Assembly (NCBI GenBank): GCA_934636245.1
Contig: CAKUAI010000003.1
Coordinates: 120,305 to 184,304, forward strand
Reading direction: 5' to 3'
Length of the DNA: 64,000 nucleotides
From: an uncultured Coriobacteriales bacterium
Lineage (GTDB): Bacteria; Actinomycetota; Coriobacteriia; Coriobacteriales; UMGS124
In this document: in pieces, positions 5,351 through 41,532 of the stretch
How positions within the stretch are numbered: position 1 is the first letter of the stretch
How the letters are laid out: each line of letters opens with the position of its first letter
Position numbers and translations under genes: made by a program
Notes under the pieces: generated by a model
The model's input: the letters and a program-made list of their open reading frames with translations, nothing else
Database searches by the model: none
Told to the model about the DNA's origin: nothing

Positions 5351-5494
5351 GAAAAAGGCCGTATGTTTGCGTTTTAATTTGACCGGGTAAGGTAGCCGAC
5401 CATATGCGCCTAACGTTTTGCCTGGTAGATTGACTGCTGCTTCAGCGGGCTACTCTGCTTGCTGGATTAAAACGCAAACATGCACGTTTTTTGC
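5351..5494. mobile_element. MITE-like repeat, family 1, copy 1
   Basis: Terminal inverted repeats GAAAAAGGCCGTATGTTTGCGTTTTAAT ... ATTAAAACGCAAACATGCACGTTTTTTGC, with central CCTGGTAGAT. The same architecture occurs at 10402, 14615 and 19149. Confidence 0.75.
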
Positions 5495-5893
5495 GATGCA
5501 GGCAGTCATATGGCGCGCATGATTGGCCTACTGCCACAGTGGGCGCTCCGACTGCGTGTCTGTTGAGTAATCGCTTGTAATAATCAAGCGATTCTATCTG
5601 CTTAATTACTTAACGATGTACAAGGCGGGTATACATGGCACCTGCTGCGACGACGAGGCGCTCGCCATCCTCGTGAGCGGCCTGCACGCTGCGCAAACGA
5701 GGAGATTGGACTATCTTGCCGAAAGGCTGAGGAGCCGTGTGTGCACCGTCACGGACGTAATGGCCGTGCTGAAACATCGAGCCTAGAGCAGGAGCGACTG
5801 CAAAGAAAGCGGGGCCGAGCCCCCGGAAAGATCCTCGGGCTCGGTCCCGCACTGGTTTAGCGTGAGGTGGCGCGCTCGTGCATTGGCTGTTCG

Positions 5894-7642
5894 TTACGCC
5901 CCAGCGACGACGTTCTTGCCAGCGACGTAGCCGTAGAACAGGCCCATGGAGCGGGCGATGCCGGCCACGGCGATGGGGTACTGCACGGTGAAGCGGCTGC
6001 CCTGGATGTTGCCGGCGACGTAGAGGCCGGGGATGATCTTGCGGTCGCGGTCGTAGACGTGGCACTCCTCGTCGCTTTCAAGGCCGCCCACGCATGCCAG
6101 CGATGCGGCCGGGCTGAAGGTCGACGCATAGAACGGGCCGGTCTCGATGGGGAAGAGGCGCTTGGAGCTTTTGCCGAAGTCCTCGTCATAGCCACCTGCG
6201 CACAGCTCGTTGTAACGCTCGACTGCCTTGGCTGCGGCTTCGGCGTCGATGTCGAGCTGGGCAAAAAGCTCCTCGAGCGTGTCACCCTTGACGAGGGTTC
6301 CCTGCTCGACGCCGTCCTCGACGGCCTTGGGATAGATGATGGCCTCGGGCTCAATCATCGACTCGGTGATGCTCGCCTGATCATCGTCGACGTAGTAGCT
6401 CTTGGAGCCATGCGCAGGGGGCATGAAGGGAATTGCGGCAGGCCAGTTGGCGTCGAAAATCATGTAGCCTGTCATGTCGCGCTGGATCTCGAGCTGGTTT
6501 TCAAGCTGCTGGCCGGGAACCTCCTCGTTCATAAAGCGGTTGCCGTCCTTGTTGAGCAGCAGGAACGGCGTGCAACCCAGGGGACCCGAACCCATGTGGT
6601 GAATCATGAGGGCGTGGCGCAGCTGGATCATCGCGCCGGCCCAGTCGCCCATGACCAGGCCCTCGCCCTGTGCCACAGGGTCACCGTTGGGGTCGCGGAA
6701 CATGCCCATGCGCATGTTGCCGTTGTAAATCTGCTCGGGCAGGAAGAACTTGACGAACTGGTCGTTGGCAACGTAGTCGCCACAGGCCAGCACGACGCCC
6801 TTCGAGGCGGTCGCCTTGATGTACTTGCCGGTGTTGTAATTGTAGGCGTACACGCCGGTGACGCGGCCCGAATCGTCTTTGATGAGCTGCTCGACGCGCG
6901 TCTCGTAGTAACCCTTGCCACCGTTCTCCTCGGCGTATTCGAGCGCCATGGCGTCAAGCTCGCGGCCGCAGATGGCAGCGGAAGTGGGGTAGGTGGGGTA
7001 GGCCTCCTGCGTGTAGTCGTACTCCTCGGGCTGAGGCCAGCACAGAGGGGTCACGTAGTGGTCCTGGTCGCCGTTGGGCGGGAAGTCGTACATGTCCTTG
7101 CAGATGTAAATGTCGGGAGCGATTTTGAAGTACCAGTCGAACACGTCGCCTACCTCGTCGAACCAGCGCGTGTAGATGGAACGCTTCGCGAAGTAGCCGC
7201 CCTCGTCCATCTCGTGGTTGACAACCTCGTCGCGGTCGAGAATGCCGTAGTTGCCCCAAACCTTGTTAGCTTCGGAATTGATGATGGCGAACTGACGACC
7301 CGGCGCCGTGTTGCCCGTCGTCTTCTCGAACCAGACGACCTCGGCACCCTCTTCAACGGCGGCGCGGATTGCAGTGCAGCCGGCGATGCCGCAGCCCACA
7401 ACGATGACCTCGGTGTCTACCTCTTCCTCGACCATGTCGTCGGTAATTGCAGGCGGTTCGGCGGCCCAGGGATAGTCGGGGCGGGTGCCGTTGGGTGCCG
7501 CAGGGGCGCTGTCCTGGCCATCGCCTGCGGGAGGCTCGCCTGCGGGTGCCTCTTCGGCCAGGGCAACCGAGGCGGCGGCGATGCTTGCGCCAGCGGCGCC
7601 TGCTGCGGCGATAAACGTACGGCGGTTGAGCGCTGTGTTCAT
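5894..7642 (-). CDS. Tat-exported FAD-dependent oxidoreductase, fumarate reductase/flavocytochrome c flavoprotein family (substrate unknown)
   Basis: ATG 7642 (aa 79 of track ORF 5894..7876) gives MNTALNRRTFIAAAGAAGASIAAASVALA. Dinucleotide fold VIVVGCGIAGCTAIRAAVEEGAEVVWFEK. C-terminal IPGLYVAGN motif. Confidence 0.85.
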   Translation of the reverse strand: MNTALNRRTFIAAAGAAGASIAAASVALAEEAPAGEPPAGDGQDSAPAAPNGTRPDYPWAAEPPAITDDMVEEEVDTEVIVVGCGIAGCTAIRAAVEEGAEVVWFEKTTGNTAPGRQFAIINSEANKVWGNYGILDRDEVVNHEMDEGGYFAKRSIYTRWFDEVGDVFDWYFKIAPDIYICKDMYDFPPNGDQDHYVTPLCWPQPEEYDYTQEAYPTYPTSAAICGRELDAMALEYAEENGGKGYYETRVEQLIKDDSGRVTGVYAYNYNTGKYIKATASKGVVLACGDYVANDQFVKFFLPEQIYNGNMRMGMFRDPNGDPVAQGEGLVMGDWAGAMIQLRHALMIHHMGSGPLGCTPFLLLNKDGNRFMNEEVPGQQLENQLEIQRDMTGYMIFDANWPAAIPFMPPAHGSKSYYVDDDQASITESMIEPEAIIYPKAVEDGVEQGTLVKGDTLEELFAQLDIDAEAAAKAVERYNELCAGGYDEDFGKSSKRLFPIETGPFYASTFSPAASLACVGGLESDEECHVYDRDRKIIPGLYVAGNIQGSRFTVQYPIAVAGIARSMGLFYGYVAGKNVVAGA

Positions 7643-7863
7643 AACGATCCCCAATCTCTTTATGAATACCTGCTGCGTCGTGCAATGGGCAAACCGAAAT
7701 GCCTCTCGCACGCCTTGAAGCATAGAAAGCCCTGGCAGCTGAAACGGGTGAAAGTCGCATTGCGCGATGCTAGCGATGCGGCCGGGCGCGCGCCTTGGGG
7801 TCACCCGCAAGTTAGTATTGACGGTGCGTGAGCTGGAACAATCCATAGGATACTGACGACGCC

Positions 7864-7902
7864 GAATAACATACATTTCAACTCATCAAATGTATGTTAT
7901 TC
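7864..7902. promoter_or_regulatory. perfect 15-bp inverted repeat (candidate operator) in the divergent promoter region
   Basis: GAATAACATACATTT (7864-7878), 9-nt spacer, then AAATGTATGTTATTC (7888-7902). A third half-site GAAATGTATGTTG lies at 7938-7950. It sits in an AT-rich patch between the divergent reductase genes starting at 7642 (-) and 8288 (+). Confidence 0.55.
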
Positions 7903-8287
7903 GACAAAACCCCAGTTGACGAAAATCAAAATCTTCCGAAATGTATGTTGTTTTGCGCGCGGCCATCTAACCCTCCGTCCTGCGGGTTTCTTTCGCGCCC
8001 CAACCACCCCTGCCCGCGTCACGTGATTTCACGAAATCGGCGGTTTGAAAACAAGTTGAAAGTCATTCGCACATTTCGGGTGTGGCACCGGTCGGGCGGT
8101 AAGCGTTCTATATGCCCTGCGCGCCGATGCGCTGGCAGATGCATGCCTTGGCGCGAGGCGCGCACGCAAGGTTGGAGCCAGGCATGGCTCCATTCCCTGT
8201 GGACAGACGGGCGGGATAAAAACCTGCTCCCAAAGAGATTGGCAAGCGAGCCGCATGGCCCGCTTGACCGCGAAAGGAGTCTCACAC

Positions 8288-10150
8288 ATGTCCAAGATGA
8301 CGCGCAGGTTGTTTGTTGGGGCCGCTGCCGCAAGCGGTGTTGCGGCGATTTCGGCTTCTATTGCCCTGGCCGACGAAGCGAAGAAGGACGAGGCGGCGCA
8401 GGCCGACGCCCCCGCCGAGGACGCGGGCGAAGAAGACAAGAAGCCGGCTGGCCCCGGCGGCATGAGCGACCCTATCGACAGCGCCCGCGAGCTTTACAAG
8501 GGCTGGCTCGGCGAGGCCCCTCAGATTTCCGATGACGACATCGTCGAGACCTACGACGCTGATGTCGTCATTCTCGGTGGCGGCCATGCCGGCACGCAGT
8601 GCGCCAAGGAGGCCGCGAAGGCCGGCGCCAAGGTCGCGGTTCTCGACCAGCAGGCTCAGGACATGTTCATGTTCTACGGCGAGGACATCGGAACCTTCAA
8701 CTCGCAGTACGTGCAGGACATGGGCTACGGCCCCTACGACGAGCAGGACGTTCTGGCACAGTGGGAGCGCACCTGCGGCTACCGTGCCAACCCCGAGCTC
8801 GTGCTCACCTACATCCGTAACTCCGGCGCCATGATCGACGACGCCATTGCCATCTGCCAGGAGAAGGACCCCTCCATCCTGACGAACATGAACGTGCAGC
8901 AGCCCGACGTCACCTATTGGGTCGACAAGTCCCAGCCGTGCGACATGGGCAACTTCAAGACCTACGTGGGTACGTTCTGCATGCGCTCCGAGATCCTCGA
9001 CGAGGTCGCCGAGGGCGTGGGCGCCTACTCCACCATCGGCAAGCTCGAGGATTGCTGCCGCGAGGTGGCCGAGGCCAACGGTGCCACCTGGTATTACGAG
9101 ACGTCCGCCGTGTGTCTCGTGAAGGACGGCGACAAGGTCGTGGGTGCCATCGCCACCAACGCCGACGGTCAGTACGTGCGCTTCAACGCCGCCAAGGCCG
9201 TCGTCATCGCCACGGGCGCCTTCCAGAACTGTCAGCCCATGATGGCCGAGTTCTACAGCGAGGCCAAGGAGCTGCAGGCCAAGAACGGCATCGCCGCCTA
9301 CACGTCCACCGACATTCCCGAGTCCGGACGCGACACCGGCATCGGCCATCGCATGGGCTGCTGGGCAGGCGGCCGCATGGAGGCCGGCCCCATGGCATCG
9401 CTTGCCAACGTGTCGGCACCCGGCCCCTTCGGCTTTGCTCCCACGCTCATCCTCAACCGCGACGGCAAGCGCTTCATGAACGAGGCTGACTTCAACGCAA
9501 TGGGTAATATGATCAACCGCCAGCCCAAGGGCATCTACTGCAACCTGTTCGACGCCAACTACCGTGACATCATCGCGCGCGGCGGCACGAACCACGGCGG
9601 CGTCGACTTCGGCCAGGCAACCTACGTGGAGCAGTGGACCGAGGACATGACGCATGTCGCAGGCGCCGGCGCCGAGGGCTACGTGGTGCGCCACGGCTGC
9701 CTTACCGAGCGCGCCGACATGGGCAAGACTCCCGTGTACGGTGCCCAGACCCTGGAGGAGCTGGCCGGCTACCTGGGCTACGAGGGCGAGGCCGTCGACA
9801 ACTTCGTGGCGAGCGTCGAGCGCTACAACGAGCTGTGCGAGGCCGGCAAGGATGACGACTTCGGCAAGAAGGCCGACTTCATGCTGCCCATTGCCACACC
9901 TCCCTTCTACGGCTCGGTCGCCGATTCCTCCACGCAGGCTGGCACTGCCGTGTCGCTGGGCGGTCTGGTGACCGACACCACCTTCAACGTTCTGGGCGAC
10001 GACGACTGCGGCATTGAGGGCCTCTACGCCATCGGCAACTGCTGCGGCGGTCGCTACGCCCTCACCTACCCGGGCATTCTTGCGGGCAACTCGATCGGAA
10101 TGGCGATGACCAACGGCTATGTCTGCGGCCAGGTAGTCGCTGCGCTGTAG
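8288..10150 (+). CDS. Tat-exported FAD-dependent oxidoreductase, fumarate reductase flavoprotein family (substrate unknown)
   Basis: ATG 8288 with AAGGAG at 8274-8279. Signal peptide MSKMTRRLFVGAAAASGVAAISASIALA. FAD motif VVILGGGHAGTQCAKEAAKAGAKVAVLDQ. C-terminal IEGLYAIGNCCGG. Confidence 0.85.
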   Translation: MSKMTRRLFVGAAAASGVAAISASIALADEAKKDEAAQADAPAEDAGEEDKKPAGPGGMSDPIDSARELYKGWLGEAPQISDDDIVETYDADVVILGGGHAGTQCAKEAAKAGAKVAVLDQQAQDMFMFYGEDIGTFNSQYVQDMGYGPYDEQDVLAQWERTCGYRANPELVLTYIRNSGAMIDDAIAICQEKDPSILTNMNVQQPDVTYWVDKSQPCDMGNFKTYVGTFCMRSEILDEVAEGVGAYSTIGKLEDCCREVAEANGATWYYETSAVCLVKDGDKVVGAIATNADGQYVRFNAAKAVVIATGAFQNCQPMMAEFYSEAKELQAKNGIAAYTSTDIPESGRDTGIGHRMGCWAGGRMEAGPMASLANVSAPGPFGFAPTLILNRDGKRFMNEADFNAMGNMINRQPKGIYCNLFDANYRDIIARGGTNHGGVDFGQATYVEQWTEDMTHVAGAGAEGYVVRHGCLTERADMGKTPVYGAQTLEELAGYLGYEGEAVDNFVASVERYNELCEAGKDDDFGKKADFMLPIATPPFYGSVADSSTQAGTAVSLGGLVTDTTFNVLGDDDCGIEGLYAIGNCCGGRYALTYPGILAGNSIGMAMTNGYVCGQVVAAL

Positions 10151-10262
10151 GGTGCGCTAGCCTGATGCGCCCCGTTCCACAGACGCTCATGTACTCTAGT
10201 ACACATCGCACCTGTGCGCTTTGCGCATCAGAACCCGTGCTTCTGAGGGGATGTGGAACCTG
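10151..10262. repeat. single REP-like unit related to the 39150-39690 tandem array
   Basis: ..GCTCATGTACTCTAGTACACATCGCACCTGTGCGCTTTGCGCATCAGAACCCGTGCTTCTGAGGGGATGTGGAACC shares the CTCATGTACTCCAGTA..GCGC..TTGCGCATCAGAACCCGC..GAACC pattern of the array units. Confidence 0.6.
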
Positions 10263-10401: not shown

Positions 10402-10546
10402 GAAAAAAGCTGCGAGTTTGCGTTTTAATCTGGCCGGGTGAGGTAGCCGACGGCCTGTGCTTGGCGTTTTGCCTAGTAGATAGGTTGCTGTTTTGGCGGG
10501 CCACTCAGCTTGATGAATCAAAACGCAAACATGCACGATTTTTTGC
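10402..10546. mobile_element. MITE-like repeat, family 1, copy 2
   Basis: GAAAAAAGCTGCGAGTTTGCGTTTTAAT ... ATCAAAACGCAAACATGCACGATTTTTTGC, with central CCTAGTAGAT. Confidence 0.75.
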
Positions 10547-10947: not shown

Positions 10948-13900
10948 CTACGTCTCCTTTTCCTTGTTAACTTTCAAGTCTTCCATCATCTGGTGCGCAG
11001 CTTCGGGGCTTATGAGGCGAAGGGAGCAATCGTCGGGTTTGGGGAACGCGAGAAGGGGCAGGCTTCCGTACCAGATGGTCTGCTGGTCGAAAATGGCATA
11101 GCAGCTTGGGCCGGAATGTCCAAGTTCGACGCGGCAGCCACAGTTCGAAAGCCTGTTGAGCGCGTCTGCGGCAACGGTTGCCTTTTGAACGAGGCAGGTG
11201 GCGGTTATTCCTCGCTGCGTTGCATCCAGCAGGGATGATTCCAACCGCGTTACCAGGGTTGCGCTGACAAAGGGCGCGGCGATGATGATGCTGCGCCTCG
11301 CTTCGCGGATGTCGTGCACAAACGTTGCCAGGAATCTCTCTGCTGTTATAAATGCGCTGGTACCAGCATTGGTGGAATTCGATTCTGCGGTGGGTCCGGC
11401 AGTATCACCTGGCTTTTGCCAATCGCTTCCAATCGGCTCGTACCCGAGTCTCACGTATGTCTTGAGGCGCTTTTTGTACATCCGCTCAAGCATGGGAACG
11501 TTCAGGTCGACATAGTCGTACACGCGCACGTCGGTTTTGCCCTCCGAAGTGCGATGAAGGCGACCCGACTGTTGGGTGACGTTGCCGCTCCAGGAGATGG
11601 GCGTGGAGAGGAAGAGTGCGTCGAGGTTGGGCATGTCGAAGCCTTCTCCCAGGTAGCTTTCAGTGGCAACGAGGGAAAGCGACTGTTTCGTTGATGCCTG
11701 CAGCGCCTCAGCAATAGCCTCGCGGCGCTGGCGCGGGGTCCCTTCGCCCACGAGCAGCCGCACTTCGGCTCCGCCTTCCTCAATCAATCGCGCCAGTTCG
11801 CGTGCGTGCTTCTTGCGTTTGCTCACCACGAGGGGCGTCCTGCCTTCGTGTAGTGCGTCAAGCACGTCTTGGGCAATAAAGCGGGTGCGGTCGGCGTGAT
11901 CGCACGCGGCGTCGAGTACTTGCGCAAAAGATGCGTCCTCGGTTAGATTGGGGAAGTGCATGGCTACATAGCGCGTGACGAGGTGGCGAGCGAATCCCTG
12001 CTCGGCCGCCTGGGCCCGCACGTCGATGCTGTGGCGTACAGGCCCGCAGAGCATGGTAACTATGGGGTCGAGTCCGTCGGCGCGTTTGGGTGTGGCGCTC
12101 AATCCGTATACCCGTTGCGCCCGCACCGCCTTGAGCACGCGCTCAAGCTGCGGTGCCGCGGCGTGGTGGCATTCGTCGCAGATTACAAGGCCGTAGTTCT
12201 GAACGAGGTCTTTTACCTGGCGCTCTCCGGGTATGTCTGATTTTTCAAACAGGGATTGGAACGTTGCGACATCGACAAGGCCACTCGGTGCTGTTTTGCC
12301 TGCCCCTATCGCGCCGACGAGGGGTCGTTTCTTTTTACTCAGGTTGCCTTTCGGGGTGAGCTGCGGCGGCCGCGTGTCCTGAATCTCTAGAAACTCGCCG
12401 AGTTGTTCGACCCACTGTTCCAACAAGGGCGTTCTGGGCACGAGGACAAGGGTCGGAAGCCCCAATCGTGCAATCAAGCTTGCCGCAACGACCGTCTTGC
12501 CAAATCCCGTGGGGGCGCAGAGGATCCCGGTGTCATATTCCAGCAGCGCCTGAGCTGCATCTTCTTGGGCCGGCCGCAGCCTTCCGGCAAACTCTGCCTT
12601 AATGCGCCCTTCGGAAAACCGTTCGTCGAGAATCGTATATGCTGCGCCAGATTCCTCAAAAAGAAGAAGGAGATTCTCCTTGCAGCCACGCGGCAAGGTG
12701 ATGCAATCGCTGCGGTCCTCGGACAGATCGATGACGCGCGGCTTTCTCCAAACAGACTGGTGCATGGCCTGCGCGCGATAAAACTCGGGATTGGCGAAAG
12801 CGGCAAGCCGGCGAATGCGGTTGCATGCGGCGGCCGAAAGGCCTTCCAGGGGGACATAGACCATGTCGGATTCCGTGAGCACGGTAAGGGCCGGGAAGTC
12901 TTGCGGTGTGAGAGGATGCTTGGGTCGGCGCATGAACGAGCGCGCTCTCCCAGATTGCTGCGCCGGGGATGTTGTGTCTGCTGAGGGGGCGGAGAACCCG
13001 GCACACTCCTTATCTAGCTGCGTATATGCGAACGTCCCCAAGAGACCACCCGTGCGTTTTCTACATATAGCGACGGAGGTTTCGGCCTGCTTCTCCGTGA
13101 CCTTTCGGATGCGAGAAAGAAATTCCCATTGATCGGGATAGGGGTTGAAGGCGTCGTCGACAAAGACCGAGTTGCCCTCGCGCTGCGCCCGGCCTTGGAA
13201 TGGAAGGGAGATAAGGTTGCCAAAGCCACCTTCTACCAGCGTGTCTTGGGTGGGAAAGAGCCGGTCGTACGCATCGAGGCGCATGGTTTTGGATAGGCTG
13301 CACGCTAAGGTTATGAGCGCACAGCCCAAGTTGCGAGCGAGCTTTGCTGTGACCGGCTCCTCAAAAAACAACCATGCATGGCCGCCGTTGCCGGACCGCG
13401 ACCGCTCCACGGCGATATCGAGGTCGAGTTGGCGTCCGGCATCGCGATATGCGGCCACGTTTTGCTGCCAACCGGTATCGTCGAAGTCGGCGACAAGAAC
13501 GGAGGTCTCACAGTTTTCATCGGTCACATAGAGCCCCACGACATCGCGCAGGCGGTCATCGGCTCCCCTGAAATGGGCGATCAGCACCTGGTCGGTGAGG
13601 GGCTTGAGGTCGCGATTGGGGCAATGGGCGCACAGACCGGAGCTTTTGCGCTTTGTCGGGTTGGCCTTGGGGCAAACGTTTGCTTTCCATTCATTTGAAC
13701 AGGCGGGCACATAGGCGATGCCGCCGTCTTTGCGCTGGTAGCCGTGGGCATAGACGTTGTCGCGCCCGTGAAAGAGAGACTGGAACAGGCGCAGCTTGTC
13801 TGCGGTGGAACTCGCCGTAGTGACGATGCCTTCGGACTCGGCCCATTCCGAAAGGTCGGCAGCTCCCTGCAACCATTCGTTTTGAGTGGCGTAAAGCACG

Positions 13901-14040
13901 GTTTTCTCGGATGTATCGGGGGCAGACTGCTGACATGCTTCGCAGATTACAATGGGTTCGCCGTGCCCAACATGTGAGATGCACCGGCTGAGCGCGAGGC
14001 GTCGTCCGTTGATGAGTGCGTGCTTCGGGAGGCTGGGCAT
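10948..14040 (-). CDS. PrimPol (archaeo-eukaryotic primase)-like domain fused to an SF2 DEAD/DEAH helicase and a C-terminal PLD-like domain
   Basis: ATG 14040 (AAGGAG 9 nt upstream) inside track ORF 10948..14085. AEP motifs: VLVADFDD, SGNGGHAWLFF, GFGNLISLPFQG. Helicase motifs: Walker A CAPTGFGKT, motif II DECHH, motif VI QQSGRLHR. The C-terminus (IIIAAPFVS ... GHSGPSCYAIFDQQTIWYGS) looks PLD-like with a degenerate HxK. From memory, RefSeq names similar proteins 'TOTE conflict system archaeo-eukaryotic primase domain-containing protein'; this is unverified. Confidence 0.8.
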   Translation of the reverse strand: MPSLPKHALINGRRLALSRCISHVGHGEPIVICEACQQSAPDTSEKTVLYATQNEWLQGAADLSEWAESEGIVTTASSTADKLRLFQSLFHGRDNVYAHGYQRKDGGIAYVPACSNEWKANVCPKANPTKRKSSGLCAHCPNRDLKPLTDQVLIAHFRGADDRLRDVVGLYVTDENCETSVLVADFDDTGWQQNVAAYRDAGRQLDLDIAVERSRSGNGGHAWLFFEEPVTAKLARNLGCALITLACSLSKTMRLDAYDRLFPTQDTLVEGGFGNLISLPFQGRAQREGNSVFVDDAFNPYPDQWEFLSRIRKVTEKQAETSVAICRKRTGGLLGTFAYTQLDKECAGFSAPSADTTSPAQQSGRARSFMRRPKHPLTPQDFPALTVLTESDMVYVPLEGLSAAACNRIRRLAAFANPEFYRAQAMHQSVWRKPRVIDLSEDRSDCITLPRGCKENLLLLFEESGAAYTILDERFSEGRIKAEFAGRLRPAQEDAAQALLEYDTGILCAPTGFGKTVVAASLIARLGLPTLVLVPRTPLLEQWVEQLGEFLEIQDTRPPQLTPKGNLSKKKRPLVGAIGAGKTAPSGLVDVATFQSLFEKSDIPGERQVKDLVQNYGLVICDECHHAAAPQLERVLKAVRAQRVYGLSATPKRADGLDPIVTMLCGPVRHSIDVRAQAAEQGFARHLVTRYVAMHFPNLTEDASFAQVLDAACDHADRTRFIAQDVLDALHEGRTPLVVSKRKKHARELARLIEEGGAEVRLLVGEGTPRQRREAIAEALQASTKQSLSLVATESYLGEGFDMPNLDALFLSTPISWSGNVTQQSGRLHRTSEGKTDVRVYDYVDLNVPMLERMYKKRLKTYVRLGYEPIGSDWQKPGDTAGPTAESNSTNAGTSAFITAERFLATFVHDIREARRSIIIAAPFVSATLVTRLESSLLDATQRGITATCLVQKATVAADALNRLSNCGCRVELGHSGPSCYAIFDQQTIWYGSLPLLAFPKPDDCSLRLISPEAAHQMMEDLKVNKEKET

Positions 14041-14180
14041 GGCTGCTCGTCTCCTTCCCCAGGGGGTATGGCCGTTGTTGTGCAATTGTAGCAGGCGGCC
14101 GGGGCGATTAAAGTAGAGAGACGGCTTGCTCTTGGTGAATTACCCGCAAAGCAGTGTCGCACAGTGGCATTCGGCAATAC

Positions 14181-14249
14181 AAAGGGGCGGGTGCATTGCG
14201 TCATTTGACTGGTAGACGACTTGGGATGACACGTTGTACCCGTCCCTTT
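14181..14249. repeat. imperfect long hairpin element (box family), copy beta
   Basis: AAAGGGGCGGGTGCATTGCGTCAT - TTGACTGGTAGACGACTTGGG - ATGACACGTTGTACCCGTCCCTTT. About 19 of 24 arm positions are complementary. Confidence 0.65.
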
Positions 14250-14254
14250 CGTTA

Positions 14255-14329
14255 TTGTTGGCGGGCGACTCGATTGGAATGGCAGTGATCAATGGTTGCG
14301 TCTGCGGCTGGGTAGTCGCCGCGCTGTAG
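14255..14329 (+). pseudogene. orphan 3-prime relic (24 codons + stop) of a flavoprotein reductase gene
   Basis: Translates LLAGDSIGMAVINGCVCGWVVAAL*, compared with the end of 8288..10150, ILAGNSIGMAMTNGYVCGQVVAAL*. There is no upstream coding continuation. Confidence 0.8.
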
Positions 14330-14614
14330 CTTGCGAGGGCTTCGGCCTACTTTTCGTTCCGAGAGGCTTGCGTGCTCCGGCATGCATCGCTTTTGGACGC
14401 CTTGCAGGTCAGGGCCTGTGTTTTAGATAGCCGCGGGACGCCGTTTCCCGTGCAATCAATCGTTCCCGTTCAGGCGCACACGCGGCGCTTGGACGGGGGT
14501 GATCTGCGTTTGGGGCTGTTGGAATGACGCAAGGGGACGGGTGCAATGTGCCGTTTCTCGGGTCAGATGATGGTTTTGGAGCAACGTCGAGGAGCGGCGA
14601 TTGAACGGGGCCTC

Positions 14615-14757
14615 CAAAAATGCCGCATGTTTGCGTTTTAATCTGGCCGAATGGAGTAGCCAGCTATCCGCGCTTATCGTTTTGCCTGGTAGCCGGGTTG
14701 CCCCTTCTGCTGCCTACTCCGCTTGCTAAATTAAAACGCAAACATGCGCGATTTTTC
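14615..14757. mobile_element. MITE-like repeat, family 1, copy 3
   Basis: CAAAAATGCCGCATGTTTGCGTTTTAAT ... AATTAAAACGCAAACATGCGCGATTTTTC, with central CCTGGTAGCC. Confidence 0.75.
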
Positions 14758-14948
14758 TGTCACCCGACCAGCCGTGCTACAGGCGACCTGCCTGCAGGGC
14801 CCTCTTATGCGTTGGGGAAGTGCTCGCATGAGCTGTTTTCGGTAACGTAGGGAAGGAACGCCTTTTGGCCCAAGCCACCCTCTTTATATACTCTCCAGGT
14901 TACTGAGTCGTATCATTGCATCGACTGTTGTGATGACGGGGGAGTGGT

Positions 14949-18808: not shown

Positions 18809-18837
18809 AGCTAACAAGCTAAGTTTACGAGACAAAG

Positions 18838-18900
18838 AGACGGGTGCACTGTGTCATTTGACTGGTAGAGGCCCTGGTATGACATGCTGTACCCGGCCTT
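18838..18900. repeat. imperfect long hairpin element (box family), copy gamma
   Basis: GACGGGTGCACTGTGTCAT - TTGACTGGTAGAGGCCCTGGT - ATGACATGCTGTACCCGGCC. Same loop start (TTGACTGGTAGA) as the 14181 copy. Confidence 0.65.
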
Positions 18901-18907
18901 CTCGTCA

Positions 18908-18982
18908 TTGCTGGCCGGCAACTCGATCGGTATGGCCATGACCAACGGTTATGTCTGCGGCCGGGTAGTCACCGCGGTGTAG
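18908..18982 (+). pseudogene. orphan 3-prime relic (24 codons + stop) of a flavoprotein reductase gene
   Basis: Translates LLAGNSIGMAMTNGYVCGRVVTAV*. It begins at the same codon as the 14255 relic. It is followed by a 49-nt stretch (19001-19049) identical to 10268-10316. Confidence 0.8.
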
Positions 18983-19076
18983 GTTGCGCTGGCCTCGCCT
19001 TTGAGTGATTGGTCGACCCCGCTCGAGCACTGCGAGGAGCGTGCTTGGGTAGGGTCGATCTGCGTTTGGGACTGTT

Positions 19077-19113
19077 GGAATGACGCAAAGGGACGGGTGC
19101 AATGCGTCATTCC
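19077..19113. repeat. perfect 11-bp stem hairpin containing the 24-nt box
   Basis: GGAATGACGCA - aagggacgggtgcaa - TGCGTCATTCC. A degenerate copy is at 14521-14557. Confidence 0.7.
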
Positions 19114-19148: not shown

Positions 19149-19292
19149 AAATAAGACGCGAGTTTGCGTTTTAATCTGACCGGGTGAGGTAGCGGGTTGC
19201 CTGTGCTCGGCGTTTTGCCTGGTAGATAGGTTGCTGTTTTGGCGAGCTACTCGGCTTGCTGAATTAAAACGCAAACATGCATGATTTTTTAC
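19149..19292. mobile_element. MITE-like repeat, family 1, copy 4
   Basis: AAATAAGACGCGAGTTTGCGTTTTAAT ... AATTAAAACGCAAACATGCATGATTTTTTAC, with central CCTGGTAGAT. Confidence 0.75.
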
Positions 19293-20091: not shown

Positions 20092-20275
20092 TCTAAAGGC
20101 CTTACCAACCTTGCGGGCCCCGGCCGGCAGGTACTTGCAGCTTGCAGGTCGGGGCTCATGCTTCCGCGACGTCCTCAGCGCCTCCCCTCTGCTTCTTTTG
20201 TCCTTGTTGGACTGATGCGCCTGCCAGGCGCTATCATGGGCTGCTTGACAATTATGAGGCAAGGCAACGGAGGGC

Positions 20276-26772: not shown

Positions 26773-27312
26773 TTGAGTCCGATGTCGCGCGGCTACACTG
26801 TACGTCCCCTGCGTGAAAGGACCGCATCCGTGCAAGACAAAGAGCAGTTCATCAAGGTGGTGAACATGCACAAAGGCAGTGTGTTTCGCCTGGCATATGG
26901 CTACCTGCGCAACCGCGCCGACGCCGAAGACGTGGTGCAGGAAGTGTTTCTCAAGCTGCATCGTTTCGGCGGCAGCTTTGAGAGCGACGAGCACGTGAAG
27001 CGCTGGCTGCTGCGGGTGACCGTCAACGAATGCACGTCGGTGTACAGGGCGCTTCGCCTGCGGCCGGAGAACATCGATGATTACATCGATACGCTCGAGA
27101 TGCCCGAGAAGGAGCGCGACGGCGAGCTCGTGCGCCAGCTCATGGCCCTGCCCACGCGCTACCGCACGGTCCTCTACCTGTACTACTTCGAAGGTTACTC
27201 GACTCACGAGGTCGCAGACCTGCTAGGGGTGCCCGACGCCACGGTGCGCACGCGACTGGCGCGGGGACGTGCAAAGCTCAAGGACGTATTGGACGAAGGG
27301 GGCACGCGATGA
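26773..27312 (+). CDS. ECF-type RNA polymerase sigma-70 factor
   Basis: Region 2 (DAEDVVQEVFLKLHRF) and region 4 HTH (YRTVLYLYYFEGYSTHEVADLLGVPDATVRTRLARGRAKL). The start codon is uncertain. Confidence 0.85.
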   Translation: MSPMSRGYTVRPLRERTASVQDKEQFIKVVNMHKGSVFRLAYGYLRNRADAEDVVQEVFLKLHRFGGSFESDEHVKRWLLRVTVNECTSVYRALRLRPENIDDYIDTLEMPEKERDGELVRQLMALPTRYRTVLYLYYFEGYSTHEVADLLGVPDATVRTRLARGRAKLKDVLDEGGTR

Positions 27313-37248: not shown

Positions 37249-37409
37249 GCGGGTCCTCGTTGCCTCGGTGAAACGTACGTAACTAAAGGTTACCCGAGAC
37301 GTAATCTCAAGTGGCGCTTTACGCATTGCATCCGTCTAAACTCCCCACTCGAAAGGCGGCGCAAAGGGGCGCCGTCGCACGGGGATTTCCAGAAATGGAG
37401 ACGATTCAC

Positions 37410-39149
37410 ATGCAGAAGAACATGAGCCGCAAGAGCTTCCTCGCAGGTGCCGGCACGGTTGCCGCAGCTGCAGTTGCTGGCAGTGCCGCCGTCGCGCTCG
37501 CCGACGACGCCAAGCCCGCCACTCAGGCCGCCGAGGGCAACATCATCACGCGCGAGACGCTCGAGCAGGGCACCTGGTCGTTCATGGTTGCTCCCGAGCC
37601 CGTCGCCGAGGACCAGATCGCCGAGACCAAGACGCACGAGATCGTCGTTGTGGGTTCCGGTGCCGCCGGCCTGTGCTGCGCGGTGTCGGCCGCTGAGCAG
37701 GGTGCCGACGTCATCGTGTTCTCCGCTGGCACCAAGCCGCTTTCGCGCGGCGGCTCCTTCCAGGCTATCGGCTCCAAGTACCAGGCCGAGCACGGCGTCG
37801 AGGACGACCCCGAGAAGCGCCGCGTCCAGACCCAGATCGACCTCATCGCCGGCGCCCGCATGATGGATTCCCGCAAGTGGATGCGCTGGGAGAACAATTC
37901 CGCCGAGTCCATGGACTGGATGATCGACAAGATGGCCGCCCGCGGCATCGAGTGTTCGCTCGCCATGCCCTACGCTGACGTCGACGGCGTGCTCGACACC
38001 CCGGCCGGCGAGCACAACTTCTGGACGGCCGACGCCCCCATGGGCGTTTTCCAGGGCGCCCCGCTCGTGGCCAAGGCCTGGGCCGACATCTTCACCGAGG
38101 ACTACGGCGGAGAGATCGACTACTCCACCGTCGCCCAGTACCTCATCCGCGAGGACGACAATACCGGTCGCGTGAGCGCGGTCATCGCCCAGGACGCCGA
38201 CGGCAACTACATCAAGTACGAGGCCACCAAGGCCGTCGTTCTCGCCACGGGCGACTTCTCCAAGGACTTCGACATGATGGCCCACTTTGCCCCCTACGCT
38301 TGGGAGCACTTCAAGGACGTCCTCACGCCCGAGGTGGACTACGACGCCGAGATGGTCTACACCGGCCTTATGCCTGGTACGGGCCAGAAGATGGGTCTGT
38401 GGATCGGCGCCGGCTGGCAGAAGACGTTCCCGAACCCCTCTGCCATCAACGGCGCCGTGTCGGGCCCCACGCACTGCGTGGTCGACTCCTTCTGGGGCAT
38501 CAACCTGGCCAAGGACGGCCGCCGCTTCCACAACGAGAACACCAACTTCGCCTTCGGCGCCTACACGCGCATGAACCTCAAGGGCGGCACCGCCTACGCC
38601 ATCTGGGACTCCCAGTACGCCTACACGCAGGATTCCTGGGACGGCCTGGGCGCCACCATCGACAACGTGAACGGCGAGATGTTCATGCCCAAGACCCCCG
38701 AACAGCTCATCGCCAGCTGGGATGCCAACGTCGAGTCGGGCAGCTACTTCAAGGCCGACACGCTTGAGGAGCTCATCGACCAGATGGAGGGCCTCGACAA
38801 GGAGAACGCCCTGGAGTCCATCGCCAACTACAACACCTACGCCAAGAACGGTCTTGACGAGGAGTTCCACGTGAACCCCGAGCTGCTGCACCCCATCGAG
38901 ACCGGCCCGTTCTACGGCTGCATCACGCCTGGCTCTACGTTCCTGTGCGTCATGGGCGGCCTGCGCTGCGATGAGCACTGCCAGGTGATGGACACCGCCG
39001 ACGAGCCCATCGAGGGCCTCTACGAGGTCGGCACCATGATCGGCGACTTCTACGGCGGCGCCTATAACTTTGCCTTCCAGGGCCAGAACCTGGGCGCATG
39101 CTGTACTACCTTCCCCTACCTCGTCGGTCGCGACCTCGCCGCCCTTTAA
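37410..39149 (+). CDS. Tat-exported FAD-dependent oxidoreductase, fumarate reductase flavoprotein family (substrate unknown)
   Basis: ATG 37410 gives MQKNMSRKSFLAGAGTVAAAAVAGSAAVALA. FAD motif IVVVGSGAAGLCCAVSAAEQGADVIVF. C-terminal IEGLYEVGT. Confidence 0.85.
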   Translation: MQKNMSRKSFLAGAGTVAAAAVAGSAAVALADDAKPATQAAEGNIITRETLEQGTWSFMVAPEPVAEDQIAETKTHEIVVVGSGAAGLCCAVSAAEQGADVIVFSAGTKPLSRGGSFQAIGSKYQAEHGVEDDPEKRRVQTQIDLIAGARMMDSRKWMRWENNSAESMDWMIDKMAARGIECSLAMPYADVDGVLDTPAGEHNFWTADAPMGVFQGAPLVAKAWADIFTEDYGGEIDYSTVAQYLIREDDNTGRVSAVIAQDADGNYIKYEATKAVVLATGDFSKDFDMMAHFAPYAWEHFKDVLTPEVDYDAEMVYTGLMPGTGQKMGLWIGAGWQKTFPNPSAINGAVSGPTHCVVDSFWGINLAKDGRRFHNENTNFAFGAYTRMNLKGGTAYAIWDSQYAYTQDSWDGLGATIDNVNGEMFMPKTPEQLIASWDANVESGSYFKADTLEELIDQMEGLDKENALESIANYNTYAKNGLDEEFHVNPELLHPIETGPFYGCITPGSTFLCVMGGLRCDEHCQVMDTADEPIEGLYEVGTMIGDFYGGAYNFAFQGQNLGACCTTFPYLVGRDLAAL

Positions 39150-39690
39150 AGTGTTGCGGAACCTCGTCCGCCGCGTTTCCAGAGGCTAGAGTACTCCAGT
39201 ACACGTCGCCTCCCGGCGCCTTGCGGACGAGAACCCGCTTTTGGGAGGGCAGAACCTCAGGCGCTGCGTTCTGCAAAGGCTCATGTACTCCAGTAGGCCA
39301 AAGGCCCGCACCGCGCACATCAACTCCGCGCGCTTTGCGCCTGAGAACCTGCTTTTAAGAGGGCGAAACCTCACGTGCGGCGTTGCGCAGGGTCTCACGT
39401 ACGTCCAGTACGCATCGACCCTGCGCGCCTTGCGCATCAGAACCCGCTTTTTGGAGCTGCAGAACCTCAGGCGCTGCGTTCTGCAAAGGCTCATGTACTC
39501 CAGTAGGCCAAGGGCGCGCATCTCGCACATCGACTCCGTGAGCCTTGTGGACGAGAACCCGCCTTTGGAAGGGCGGAACCTCACGCGCGGCGTTGCGCAG
39601 GGTCTCACGTACGTCCAGTACGCATCGGCCCTGCGCACGTTGCGCGTGAGAACTTGTTTTTGAGAGGGCGGAGCATCGTCTGTGATATTC
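39150..39690. repeat. tandem REP-like array: about 2.5 copies of a 210-bp unit built from two related ~95/115-bp subunits
   Basis: The landmark GTACTCCAGTA / GTACGTCCAGTA recurs at 39191, 39285, 39399, 39495 and 39609 (210-nt period). Subunits contain hairpins, e.g. GCGCAGGGTC-22 nt-GACCCTGCGC and GCAGAAC-12 nt-GTTCTGC. Confidence 0.8.
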
Positions 39691-39726: not shown

Positions 39727-39781
39727 GTGCGAGTTGCGCGTATCAGTGTTCGTTATGATTGGCGGATGCTTCGACAATGAC

Positions 39782-39933
39782 GAAAATCGCCAAAAGTCTG
39801 CGTTATAACTCTGATGCTCCGGTAGCTCCAAAACACGCGGGTCATCTACCTGGGGTGATAGAGACACTCAATATGGAAAGCACGGGCCCGCAGCTCCTGG
39901 GTCATATTATTACGCAGACTTTTGGTCTTTTTG
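39782..39933. mobile_element. MITE-like repeat, family 2, copy A
   Basis: TIRs GAAAATCGCCAAAAGTCTGCGTTATAA ... TTATTACGCAGACTTTTGGTCTTTTTG. The TIR consensus resembles family 1 (GAAAA..GCC....GT[CT]TGCGTT[AT]TAA). Confidence 0.7.
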
Positions 39934-39988
39934 ATTGTCGCGCTCGGCAACGCATGACTAATGAGGCGATATCGACGTTGCTGTGGCG

Positions 39989-41173
39989 TCATTTTTTCCG
40001 GTTGCCTGCAAGCTGATGGATGTGAGACCAGCTACTCATGACTTCTCTGTGCAGTTCATCTGCTCGCCGTGCCTGTGTGTCGGTTTTCTTTCGGGGCTGG
40101 GTGCCCAGAAGCCGTGCGATCGTTTTCGTGAGTGCAGCGAATCTTTGTGCATCACGTAGCTGGGCAAATGTGATGGGAAGCACATTGATTCCCATGTAGC
40201 TGAGCGCAGTACAGCGGTCGGAGTCAGACAAGAAGCTGCGCTCTTCCTGATGGATAACAGCGCTTTGGCACTCAAGGTCGAGGCTGCCATCTTCCCAAAA
40301 GAGATCGCACATGCAAAACTGACGTTGAGCGAGAAGCCTGCCTTCTCGCGACAGTGTGACCTTGCGATTGAATGTAAAGTCGTCAAACCCTTCGCCGCCC
40401 AGGCGGCGGGGGAAGCCGAGCAGAATGCCAGCCCGGACTTCGAAGGGTGAGGCTGCGCCTTCCCGCATGAGTGAGGCGGCCTGCTGCAGGCGAAGCCTGC
40501 CACGTCTTGCGTCGGACATTTCCGCGAAGCGCAATATCGCGTAAGGTGTGGCGAGCGGAGGACGGGACCACAGGTTGGTAAGGCGACCCTTGCCATCCAC
40601 AAGAGGCTCCCATCCTGCGATCTTTGGAATCCCGCGTCTCTCGAGAATCCGTTGGAGGCATTCCCTGATAAGAGATGGGGGATTGTACACAGCAAAGGAG
40701 CCACAGAGTTCATCGCCCATCATGATCAGCTGAGCCAGGCTTGCATGGGCGGCGAATTGCTGCAGGATGAGCTCGGGAGTCGCCACCCAAATGTCGTCTA
40801 TGAGATGCACACGACCGCCCGACGGGATATCACCCGTCCAAAGGTGTGACCTTAGAAGCGACGATGCATGAAACTGAACGCGTGCATGTACAAGAATGTC
40901 AATGGACGCCGTGTGGTTGGCGGCAAGAGACGGAATAGCCCAGTGCAAGTCTCGACTTGTTGCGCCAGAGCGCCGAGTCCTTGTGTTTGGGTTTAAGAAC
41001 AGCGTGCATAGAGGAAGTTCAGCGAATGCCCTTGCTCGGAAGACCTGAAGCATGTCGGGGCTTATGATGTCTGACAGCAATGGATCATCGCCTGCTCCCG
41101 CTAGGAGCAGGTGGACAATCGGCGGGATTCGCCAGTAATTAAATGCCGTAACACCGCAAATAGTAGTCTCCAT
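39989..41173 (-). CDS. hypothetical protein with a C-terminal DUF559/Vsr-like endonuclease-fold region
   Basis: The C-terminal pattern ASPFEVRAGILLG...F..NRKV.......R..CMCDLFWEDGSLDLECQSAVIHQEE....D..RCTALSYMGINVLPITFAQL resembles DUF559 proteins (SP.E..l...l......Q......yr.D......lEvDG..H......D..R...L...G..v.R.t). The N-terminal part is unassigned. Visibly lower GC. Confidence 0.5.
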   Translation of the reverse strand: METTICGVTAFNYWRIPPIVHLLLAGAGDDPLLSDIISPDMLQVFRARAFAELPLCTLFLNPNTRTRRSGATSRDLHWAIPSLAANHTASIDILVHARVQFHASSLLRSHLWTGDIPSGGRVHLIDDIWVATPELILQQFAAHASLAQLIMMGDELCGSFAVYNPPSLIRECLQRILERRGIPKIAGWEPLVDGKGRLTNLWSRPPLATPYAILRFAEMSDARRGRLRLQQAASLMREGAASPFEVRAGILLGFPRRLGGEGFDDFTFNRKVTLSREGRLLAQRQFCMCDLFWEDGSLDLECQSAVIHQEERSFLSDSDRCTALSYMGINVLPITFAQLRDAQRFAALTKTIARLLGTQPRKKTDTQARRADELHREVMSSWSHIHQLAGNRKK

Positions 41174-41380
41174 GCGCTTACCCTACCATGCCCAGACAAC
41201 GGCATGGAGGGGCAGATTCACATTGGGGTCATTATTGCAAGACCTCCTTATTTTGTGACAAAAATACCTGGTAGATGTGACGTTTGTCACAAAAAGTCAC
41301 AGGATTTGAAGCAGGCAATCGACCTCAGGAGATACTCGGTTTTTTGAGGCAACGTTGCTGCGCTTCAAGGTGCTCACTGC

Positions 41381-41532
41381 GAAAAAAGCCAAAAGTATGC
41401 GTTATAAATTCCGCCACATTGGCAGAAGGAAGAACGGACTTTTTCGCCACTGTATCTACCTCGTGTAATGTTTGGGCGAGAATGGGCATGCAGAGCAGCT
41501 TGAAATTATAACGCAGACTTTTGGCAGTTTTG
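41381..41532. mobile_element. MITE-like repeat, family 2, copy B
   Basis: TIRs GAAAAAAGCCAAAAGTATGCGTTATAA ... ATTATAACGCAGACTTTTGGCAGTTTTGG. The interior differs from copy A. Confidence 0.7.

Follow-up and report, generated by a model that had tools for sequence, protein, structure and literature searches.

Six copies of a hairpin-forming repeat at the locus

The window analyzed here, a 64,000-nucleotide stretch from an uncultured Coriobacteriales bacterium, holds six copies of a short repeat; all six were confirmed where the original prediction had placed them, and an nhmmer family model refined their limits to run from an A-run to a T-run. The four family 1 copies lie on the plus strand and are 73–88% identical in pairs (148 nt). 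Copy a (5352..5492) follows the stop codon of an LMW phosphotyrosine phosphatase gene (4858-5328) at a distance of 23 nt; a flavin reductase gene on the minus strand faces it in convergent orientation. Copy b (10403..10543), the right arm of which bears one mismatch (TCAAAACGC), lies 254 nt downstream of a reductase gene (8255-10150). Copy c (14616..14756) occupies the divergent region between a TOTE AEP-helicase gene (minus strand) and a LuxR gene (plus strand), and copy d (19149..19289) sits between a reductase gene (16699-18690) and an FMN_red gene. Family 2 is represented by two copies of a 120-nt length class, both in minus orientation as judged by their central box. Copy a of this family (39783..39932; arms GTCTGCGTTATAA, central box CCCAGGTAGATGAC on the minus strand) is positioned 56 nt past the stop codon of a minus-strand ORF (39989-41173); copy b (41382..41531; central box GAGGTAGATAC on the minus strand) lies upstream of the same ORF and adjoins a reductase 3′-end relic. 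The DUF559-like label first given to this ORF found no support in Pfam, NCBIfam and PDB searches. With up to two mismatches allowed, the window holds 12 occurrences of the arm core GTYTGCGTTWTAA against an expectation of 2.5 ± 1.6 (none of 100 shuffles reached 12), and all of them are arms of the six copies.

Copies c and d are each the terminus of a duplicated module. The left boundaries of these modules are formed by a 75-nt hairpin of another repeat type: the hairpin of the c module (14176..14250, plus strand) carries the same central box in its loop (TTTGACTGGTAGACGACTTGG; fold z = −5.0), as does the second copy, in the d module (18829..18905, plus strand; CTGGTAGAGG in the loop). Within each module lies a flavin reductase relic, at 14258..14342 (plus strand, the last ~85 nt of the gene) in the c module and at 18911-18995 in the d module. 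A short inverted repeat, TTTTGTGACAAA/TTTGTCACAAAA around CCTGGTAGATG (41250..41297, plus strand; fold z = −1.3, not significant), may conceivably be related to the family.

Conserved architecture and a covarying terminal stem

The element opens with A5 and a 3-nt mismatch, continues through an 18-bp stem, an interior and the mirrored stem, and closes with T5; the terminal inverted repeats span 27–32 nt. The stem holds a near-invariant 13-bp box, GTTTGCGTTTTAA. Two interior lengths occur, 89 nt and, for a second class, 98 nt; the interior sequence is highly variable (~45% identity between copies of one genome) but contains, at a fixed offset, a polar, asymmetric central box, CCWGGTAGATGnCTTGC. 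Arm-to-arm spacing is constant at 89 nt for family 1 and 98 nt for family 2; measured from core to core, 169 of 245 copies are 111 nt long, and in nearly all copies the central box falls at offset 54–55 of the core-to-core span. The conservation profile rises in islands at the arms, AGTA, the central box and GGCTA, and GTAG/CTAC tetranucleotides are kept at three fixed positions (AGTAG at p24–28, GGTAGA at p59–64 and CTAC at p84–87). The stem box and central box are nearly unchanged, while the other interior positions vary freely at constant length. The A5/T5 runs are absent from a divergent class, CALELU, and from a 109-nt class.

The suggestion that the two families are related was upheld by their common arm architecture and by the CCWGGTAGAT box at offset 54–55 in both. 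A model built from family 1-type arms only scores the family 2 copies at 46 and 39 bits, and family 1 arms are also found in the family 2 length class (119–121 nt); families 1 and 2 are two arm-variants of one family. The central box revealed a polarity that had been missed at first reading: the two copies of family 2 run opposite to those of family 1, and they are direct rather than inverted repeats of each other, with unrelated interiors. The pair was seen in one context only, across 8 metagenome places, and gives no evidence for the composite element proposed around the intervening ORF, which has low GC3.

Evidence for selection on the arms comes from their pairing. In the terminal stem, 94% of cells are paired, both sides have changed at 9 pairs, and none of 500 shuffles, nor any slid control, reached the observed covariation. 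At stem position −6, GC, CG, AT and TA are all used, and within the stem box, double changes are seen in GTTTGGATTTTAA/TTAAAATCCAAAC, in the family 2 arms, and in GCGCTTTAA/TTAAAGCGC. Compensatory substitutions thus keep the 18-bp terminal stem.

Distribution and genomic location

The arm pattern matched 90 genome stretches. Five uncultured and closely related Coriobacteriaceae species account for ~70 of these, and one Eggerthellaceae MAG and one Senegalimassilia MAG gave further matches; a metagenome scan added 105 loci. In total, ~245 copies were recovered from the five species and from more divergent Eggerthellaceae, and those of the main clade fall into 28 interior clusters. Each of the five species carries 9–18 exact-arm copies; as exact arms are present in 31 of 52 copies of an unbiased subsample, this implies ~25–30 copies per genome. 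Loci were retrieved via exact arms and chosen for containing elements, a bias that overstates arm conservation and tends to hide empty sites. The repeats are an undescribed family of ~141-bp, hairpin-forming, intergenic elements in a small clade of human-gut Coriobacteriia, and their description as multi-copy, non-coding, interspersed sequences with ~27-nt terminal inverted repeats and hairpin potential stands.

Genes face the elements with 107 3′ ends against 53 5′ ends, and at the cluster level 26 of the element-bearing intergenic regions are convergent, 25 co-directional and 8 divergent. Copies are found mainly a short way downstream of genes, at a median of 125 nt from a facing stop codon. 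Within the window, as predicted, each copy adjoins a reductase gene, a relic or an acquired gene; this association does not extend genome-wide, where the neighbors are diverse housekeeping genes.

Inheritance and rearrangement

Orthologous copies were found in up to five species, with both flanks in common, interiors 83–100% identical, and an interior divergence rate close to that of the flanks. Family 1 copy a has orthologues with the same flanks in three further species (L075, L078 and L086), and family 2 copy a is 100% identical across 8 strains. Family 1 copies b, c and d are paralogues rather than independent insertions: a unit spanning a reductase 3′ end through to the element was segmentally duplicated. 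Homology among their modules extends to the T-run and no further. Between species, homology often stops exactly at the A-run or T-run of an element, and element ends coincide with synteny breaks. In L048, a single element has the left flank of copy a on one side and the right flank of copy d on the other. Interiors are exchangeable between copies: copy b of strain L003 has a replaced interior (63% identity) between flanks that are still 98–100% identical, the one such swap among ~139 comparisons in which the flanks were near-identical. Strain SNPs cluster at the left boundary of family 2 copy b.

Transposition and structured-RNA readings

The repeats were originally described as MITE-like, which holds insofar as they are short, non-coding, dispersed sequences with terminal inverted repeats. 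Classical MITEs would be IS deletion derivatives mobilized in trans, the transposase being encoded at another place in the genome and the arms serving as its binding sites; the near-invariant arm box is expected of a protein-binding site, multiple copies are scattered beside unrelated genes, and element ends lie at rearrangement junctions, as near active IS elements. The signatures of movement are missing. The direct-repeat score of element flanks equals that of permuted flank pairs (3.93 vs 3.93), giving no sign of target-site duplications; no empty site appeared in ~1000 flank-pair comparisons; no transposase domain was found in the window ORFs tested, in line with the first reading, and the search for an autonomous partner came up empty both in the window and beside ~85 copies. 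Plasmids, phages and viral contigs yielded no match. Interiors within a genome are far from the near-identity expected of MITEs, the arms co-vary between classes as predicted by base pairing and not by a shared transposase site, and many copies are orthologous across species; copies b, c and d of family 1 are segmental duplicates. We consider a classical MITE unlikely, and current cut-or-copy transposition is not supported by the evidence. A decaying MITE family was likewise a poor fit to conserved arms, a central box at fixed position, and a variable interior of fixed length.

A REPIN-like system, in which a single-copy domesticated RAYT-type HUH (Y1) transposase recognizes the single-stranded hairpin while the repeats persist vertically with the host, would account for several of these features. 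The REPIN literature describes a selected hairpin, an extragenic location and persistence at orthologous sites (PMC3337134, PMC3116915, bioRxiv 10.1101/2022.05.22.493013), all of which fit the present elements. REPINs and the present repeats are both extragenic, two-armed inverted hairpins, vertically transmitted and long-lived, that lack target-site duplications. The GTAG/CTAC tetranucleotides conserved at three fixed positions resemble the GTAG head of REPs. IS200/IS605-type transposition creates no target-site duplications, so that their absence here fits a REPIN-like reading. Nevertheless, neither the window nor the element neighbors showed a RAYT or other Y1 transposase, copies number in the tens rather than hundreds (~ten times fewer), and the arms are AT-rich and non-palindromic rather than short GC-rich palindromes. 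A long (89-nt), variable spacer marked by a polar box sets the elements apart, and their interiors are far more diverse than a REPIN population around a master sequence. RAYTs are reported mainly from Proteobacteria. A REPIN-like system therefore strikes us as decidedly unlikely.

As small structured RNA genes or cis-regulatory RNAs, the elements would use the terminal stem and T-run as a terminator and the central box as a functional loop. The covarying stem, the T-run after it, and the fixed position of a box that recurs in the loops of unrelated hairpins are compatible with this, as is the better folding of the plus strand of window copies a, b and d of family 1, by 11–18 kcal/mol. At the cluster level, however, neither strand is preferred (15/28, p = 0.2), RNAalifold gave no consensus structure for the interior, interior folding z-scores average −0.84, and Rfam contains no matching family. 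No conserved promoter lies upstream, since the flanks are unrelated. Central-box orientation is unrelated to the direction of neighboring genes (12–15 same vs 13–16 opposite in co-directional regions), which argues against a strand-specific cis-RNA role. There is, in our judgment, only a slim chance that these are RNA genes.

Site-specific recombination at attC-like folded hairpins by an unknown recombinase, exchanging interiors and adjacent modules as cassettes, is highly improbable: exact homology breaks at element ends, module ends at the T-run, preferential retention of the left flank (upstream gene; ~38 vs 9 pairs, which are not independent), the interior replaced between identical arms, family 2 direct repeats with different interiors around a low-GC3 ORF (as expected from circle integration at an arm), and clustering (6 in 64 kb vs ~0.6 expected for ~25–30 copies in an assumed ~2.5–3 Mb genome) all point toward it, but no recombinase was found nearby, the arms do not match the attC R/L box consensus, the intervening genes are large, of mixed orientation and with their own regulators, interior exchange was seen only once, and homologous recombination of dispersed repeats equally explains the flank switching, the L048 hybrid and the interior conversion.

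Discussion

The best reading of these elements is that they resemble old, host-retained palindromic repeats of the ERIC, REPIN or Correia kind that mark recombination junctions, and not a recently jumping MITE. ERIC (IRU) sequences of Enterobacteriaceae are 127-bp imperfect palindromes, intergenic near genes, with tens of copies per genome, many at orthologous sites, a hairpin kept by compensatory changes, and no associated transposase. By description rather than by sequence comparison, and in another host phylum, the present repeats share each of these traits at a similar size class. ERIC copies resemble one another from end to end, whereas here only the arms and central box are conserved and interiors of constant length differ by ~55% from locus to locus. 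In Neisseria, Correia elements (CREE/NEMIS) are 100–155 bp long, with ~26-nt inverted ends, an internal protein-binding box, two length classes, transcript hairpins, and links to strain sequence variation and rearrangement; our elements correspond in size, ends, length classes and between-strain variation and rearrangement, with a putative protein-binding box and predicted transcript hairpins. Correia elements also duplicate a TA target, number in the hundreds and are clearly polymorphic for presence or absence, none of which was found here. Integron attC sites likewise are imperfect palindromes with conserved outer boxes, a variable centre and selection on structure, associated with a gene on one side and forming junctions at the element end; the present elements differ in having no intI/attI, no RYYYAAC/GTTRRRY boxes, constant length, a conserved central box, and neighbors that are not promoterless cassettes.

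Taken together, we favor, at about even confidence, a family of old, lineage-restricted, retained and constrained non-coding palindromic repeats, mostly vertically inherited, that probably serve as a hairpin terminator or protein-binding module and as a recombination hotspot; its origin may have been a MITE or a REPIN-like element. Such a family, with its two arm classes and two main lengths, would occupy fixed intergenic positions within one clade of gut Coriobacteriia, every copy being able to fold into a long hairpin as a transcript or as single-stranded or cruciform DNA. The A5/T5-flanked hairpin probably serves as a bidirectional transcription terminator or 3′-end stabilizer. A ~65-bp stem far exceeds the need of a terminator, the separate terminator-like hairpins upstream of family 1 copies b, c and d also count against this role, and the loss of A5/T5 from the CALELU and 109-nt classes indicates that termination is not a universal constraint. 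The hairpin may also present its two conserved boxes to a hypothetical sequence-specific factor. Finally, the common arms would provide substrates for recombination, which may duplicate, delete and reshuffle neighboring accessory modules such as the reductase/LuxR units of this locus.

Architecture and distribution of the hairpin elements

Six copies of a short inverted-repeat element are present in the window, and the original prediction had their positions right. The four family 1 copies, a–d, lie on the forward strand at 5352–5492, 10403–10543, 14616–14756 and 19149–19289, and align over 148 nt with 73–88% identity; the two family 2 copies, a and b, lie on the reverse strand at 39783–39932 and 41382–41531. 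In the window, the arm core GTYTGCGTTWTAA is found 12 times (2.5 expected), and all 12 occurrences are arms of these copies, with an arm-to-arm spacing of 89 nt in family 1 (4/4) and 98 nt in family 2 (2/2). All six form long hairpins (z-scores from −2.8 to −8.2), bearing out the hairpin potential that had been proposed.

With all copies placed in register, a common layout emerges: an A5 run, a 3-nt mismatched patch, an 18-bp stem, the interior, the mirrored stem and a T5 run, together ~141 bp. The inner 13 bp of the stem, GTTTGCGTTTTAA, are nearly invariant. The inverted ends extend over 27–32 nt, 87–90% of arm pairs are complementary, and the core-to-core distance is 111 nt in 169 of 245 copies, with minor classes at 109–110 and 119–123 nt. 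Interiors are unrelated between loci, diverging by ~55% (~45% identity), and have no ORF in common; three islands are kept at fixed positions, namely AGTA(G) near position 24–28, its partner GGCTAC near position 81–87, and a central box, CATTnTnCCWGGTAGATGnCTTGC, from offset 54–55. Because this central box is asymmetric, the element has a polarity, which had previously been missed; within the window, the box is oriented on the forward strand in 4/4 family 1 copies and on the reverse strand in 2/2 family 2 copies.

The proposed kinship of the two families is confirmed, family 2 being a second arm class (GTMTGCGTWATAA / TTAWAACGCAKAC) of one family. Its copies carry the same central box as family 1 and score 39–46 bits with a model built from family 1-type arms only. 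The family 2 arm class is widespread among related genomes, and the family 2 length class is also found with family 1 arms. In more distant variants, the 13-bp box and the length are preserved and the outer arms and central box are altered. The divergent CALELU class possesses perfect 32-nt arms and CCCAGGTCA, and the 109-nt class has the ends CTAC...GTAG; the A5/T5 runs that flank the stem in the main clade are missing in both classes. The 109-nt class, represented by the metagenome loci L112, L116, L121, L126, L131, L142, L152, L154, L156, L177 and L190, occurs in another human-gut organism, with ends CTACGTTTGCGTTTTAA...AAAACGCAAACGTAG, the box CCCAGTTGGCGAG and neither A nor T runs; L156 additionally holds a copy of this class with an internal deletion.

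One genome per species was scanned for TTTGCGTTTTAA-N80–105-AAAACGCAAA, which returned 90 stretches. Approximately 70 of these belong to five closely related uncultured Coriobacteriaceae/Coriobacteriales metagenome-assembled genomes (MAGs), one Eggerthellaceae MAG and one Senegalimassilia MAG; the other ~20 derive from unrelated phyla and look like the chance matches expected for the scan pattern. A metagenome scan contributed 105 further loci. The collection comprises ~245 copies in 28 interior clusters, with ~25–30 copies per genome and neighbours from more than 70 protein clusters. The description as a dispersed inverted-repeat family holds, with many copies in unrelated contexts. Plasmids, phages and viral contigs furnished no credible match; the single viral-contig hit, with a 103-nt gap in an AT-rich context, looks like chance. 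The literature searched mentions neither the sequence nor a repeat family of this kind in this group, and we class the family as a bacterial interspersed palindromic repeat, a known type with an unusual architecture.

Selection on the terminal stem

Among 68 distinct copies, the terminal stem is 94% paired; nine pairs have changed on both sides, and one pair is seen as GC, CG, AT and TA. All five covariation measures exceeded 500 of 500 shuffles as well as every slid-register control. Rare changes within the invariant box are mirrored in the opposite arm (GTTTGGATTTTAA/TTAAAATCCAAAC, GTTTGTG/CACAAAC, GCGCTTTAA/TTAAAGCGC and the family 2 arms). The mirrored and two-sided changes therefore indicate that base pairing of the arms is selected, and the inner 13 bp are, beyond pairing, also constrained in sequence. 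We take the hairpin to be the selected feature.

A complex conserved RNA fold was rejected: RNAalifold found no consensus structure beyond the terminal stem, and an all-pairs covariation scan gave 60–70% pairing in the mirrored register and no consistent helices. Interiors fold only slightly better than shuffles (mean z of −0.84), and the AGTAG/CTACT helix is just 63.5% paired in its fixed register. A folding preference for the box-defined strand, seen in 60 of 84 copies and apparently significant when counted by copy, fell to 15 of 28 when counted by interior cluster (p = 0.2) and was discarded. Searches against Rfam 15 identified one tRNA as the sole match at gathering score in the window, and nothing below E = 1 over 14150–14800.

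Genomic placement and candidate roles

The genes next to the elements are diverse, encoding ThiC, FBP aldolase, antiporters, peptidases, ABC transporters, ECF sigma factors, reductases and LuxR regulators; transposases are not among them. Gene 3′ ends face an element about twice as often as 5′ ends (107 vs 53), with a median of 125 nt between the facing stop codon and the element. Counted by cluster, the intergenic regions are convergent in 26 cases, co-directional in 25 and divergent in eight; in co-directional regions the central box follows and opposes the gene direction with equal frequency. Two paralogous ECF sigma factor genes (L026/L095 and L080/L088) each have an element 100–160 nt upstream of their start, and the window ECF sigma gene (26773–27312) has no adjoining element.

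A putative terminator or 3′-end stabiliser role for the hairpin, which we infer to be the most likely function, is favoured by its location behind genes, by the flanking A5/T5 runs and by its enrichment in convergent regions; simple terminator scans cannot score hairpins as long as these. Termination would not be the sole role, since the invariant stem box together with the polar central box implies a sequence-specific reader, and since the A/T runs are missing from distant classes. Promoter readings did not survive. A sigma-54 promoter was considered because TGGTAGATGACTTGC has the TGG-N9-TTGC spacing, and was rejected because copies of the 109-nt class and some CALELU copies have lost the GG and mini-hairpins do not retain the TTGC of the central box. 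To our knowledge, Actinobacteria are generally without sigma-54. For sigma-70, the key positions of the −10/−35 readings, in box or arms, are not conserved, and a promoter scan of the elements detected no promoter-like site. A small ORF in the arm, ATG TTT GCG TTT TAA, was dismissed because about half of the copies have ACG in place of its ATG, which therefore cannot be a gene start.

Mobility of the elements

In the original prediction the elements were MITE-like. Consistent with this, they are short, non-coding, bounded by terminal inverted repeats and dispersed in many copies; however, a MITE mechanism is unsupported, because target-site duplications were not detected and neither an autonomous partner nor insertion polymorphism was found in loci selected for containing elements. 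Over 79 copies, the mean direct-repeat score of true flank pairs (3.93) equalled that of permuted pairs (3.93); an imperfect 9–10-nt direct repeat, GCCAGCTCG / GCCAGCCTCG, is confined to the b/d lineage and was counted as a single event. No autonomous partner with the same ends was detected in the 64-kb window, in ~1.5 Mb of loci beside copies, or in plasmids, phages and viral contigs. The window had been said to hold no transposase, and indeed none of its tested ORFs, several of which have no match of any kind, possesses a transposase or recombinase domain. There were no empty sites among ~1000 flank-pair matches, from loci chosen for containing elements, and in such loci seven strains of the window species carry the full set of four family 1 copies. 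At many loci, three to five species share orthologous copies, with interiors evolving about as fast as the flanks.

The two family 2 copies, which are repeated in direct orientation and have interiors unrelated to each other, flank a 394-aa low-GC3 ORF (39989–41173, reverse strand). This arrangement had been likened to a composite element around a DUF559-like gene. The label is unsupported, as the ORF has no Pfam, NCBIfam or PDB match; a protein of identical sequence is encoded by at least 23 metagenome contigs, in every case within the same context. We rejected a composite transposon, as one context recurs in eight places and the ORF is devoid of a nuclease or transposase domain. An invertible promoter (inverton) was likewise rejected: no true flipped pair exists among the compared loci, apparent flips were ambiguous orientation calls in the 109-nt class, and the swapped interior of strain L003 does not match the reverse complement of that in the window.

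Shared modules and recombination at the elements

Copies b, c and d share a module that runs from ~85 nt before the end of a flavin reductase gene through a terminator-like hairpin and stops exactly at the T-run; these copies are not independent insertions. In the c and d modules, the reductase gene is reduced to a relic. Reductase 3′-end relics, consisting of the last ~25–100 codons with the rest of the gene missing, lie at 14258–14342, 18911–18995 and 41551–41874, and are evidence of repeated truncation and duplication in the island. The left edges of the c and d modules are occupied by 75-nt hairpins of a second repeat family (AAAGGGRCGGGTGCANTGYGTCAT), at 14176–14250 and 18829–18905. Their loops carry nearly the same central box, TTTGACTGGTAGA(C/G)G, with CTGGTAGA common to these loops and the main element, which suggests that the box is portable from one stem to another. 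Solo arms of the second family are located directly upstream of copies c and d (14526–14555 and 19082–19111) and directly after the reductase at 23884–25950 (25949–25978). Between copies b and c lies a TOTE conflict-system gene (10948–14085, reverse strand), the 1045-aa product of which has an AEP-TOTE primase domain (E = 1.5e-78) together with ResIII, DEAD and Helicase_C domains; relatives of this gene adjoin the b-locus element in other species (L007, L046).

Direct comparison links the elements to recombination. Many species pairs share homology on one side of the element alone, usually on its 5′ side as oriented by the box, and this homology ends exactly at the A-run or T-run. At the MGYG-HGUT-00585 locus, one element links the left flank of copy a with the right flank of copy d, without the 14 kb that separates these copies in the window. 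Across seven strains of the window species, the copies are identical with the exception of copy b in strain L003, whose interior is 63% identical and whose arms and flanks are 96–100% identical. The L003 interior resembles b-locus copies of other species, and the window b interior resembles copy d; gene conversion between copies is the most likely source of this swap. Family 2 copy b has a second such mosaic patch at its left edge (in its own orientation; window ~41530–41560) in five of eight other strain contigs, L203, L204, L205, L207 and L209 (~5700–5770 in L203 locus coordinates). The patch comprises 9–11 SNPs in ~70 nt that extend from the flank through the arm into the beginning of the interior; detailed alignments of two of the strains, L203 and L205, show identity over at least 100 nt on each side. 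This SNP cluster looks like a small imported or converted tract.

Other variation was also observed in the window. A tandem array at 39216–39669, directly after the reductase at 37311–39149, has a period of 210 bp (sub-period ~95–105 bp), 2.2 copies and 84% matches, and a related unit is found at 10161–10247, after the reductase at 8255–10150. The spacing of the genes flanking the array differs by exactly 210 bp between strains (7815 vs 8025 in L203 and L206), so array copy number appears to vary. A 338-bp indel in the FMN_red–MFS gap (window 20092–20275 vs L001 15144–15665) has no connection with the hairpin family; among strains of the same species, L001, L003, L004 and L006 possess the segment, and the window, L002 and L005 lack it. 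At 55370–59189, in the right end of the window, an ABC/AAA_21 (AbiEii-like) ATPase gene near that of an Abi_2 protein may constitute a defence island.

Relation to known repeat systems

By its features, the family looks most like old, host-retained palindromic repeats such as ERIC, Correia elements and REPINs, which are palindromic repeats of other phyla. Shared with REPINs are two inverted arms forming a hairpin under selection. However, REPINs comprise hundreds of near-identical copies around a master sequence, whereas here a genome holds ~25–30 copies, with interiors ~45% identical between loci. The RAYT gene of REPIN systems is usually flanked by the repeats; a RAYT (Y1 HUH transposase) was not seen among element neighbours or window ORFs.

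The elements could alternatively be folded-hairpin recombination sites, at which a recombinase or HUH enzyme would read the 13-bp stem box and a loop-presented CCWGGTAGATG; we regard this as very improbable. A dedicated recombination system of this sort is unlikely, yet it is the reading most worth testing. If true, interiors and adjacent accessory modules (flavin reductase/LuxR units, for instance, or the foreign ORF flanked by family 2 copies) would be exchanged in cassette-like fashion, providing the xenobiotic-reductase islands of gut Coriobacteriia with integron-like or REPIN-like gene shuffling. Integron attC sites have RYYYAAC ... GTTRRRY boxes, a nearby intI/attI, and co-oriented arrays of promoterless cassettes. 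In contrast, the arms GTTTGCGTTTTAA / TTAAAACGCAAAC, read directly, do not match the attC consensus, no integrase domain was found in the tested window ORFs, and the genes between elements are mixed in orientation and have their own regulators. We know of no report of integrons in Actinobacteria.

The elements offer a clean test case for the persistence of palindromic repeats in bacterial genomes, as they combine an invariant stem box with a loop box that is portable and an interior that is free to vary at fixed length; the same features allow their reading factor to be sought. On the practical side, the repeats account for spurious ORFs, can disrupt metagenome assembly and could be used as strain-typing markers. 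Gut Eggerthellaceae possess large, variable sets of flavin reductases with LuxR regulators, the substrates of which are drugs and dietary compounds. The repeat family is concentrated in such a reductase island, with six copies in 64 kb; given this concentration and their position exactly where gene content differs between closely related species, the elements may help to duplicate, lose and reshuffle these islands.
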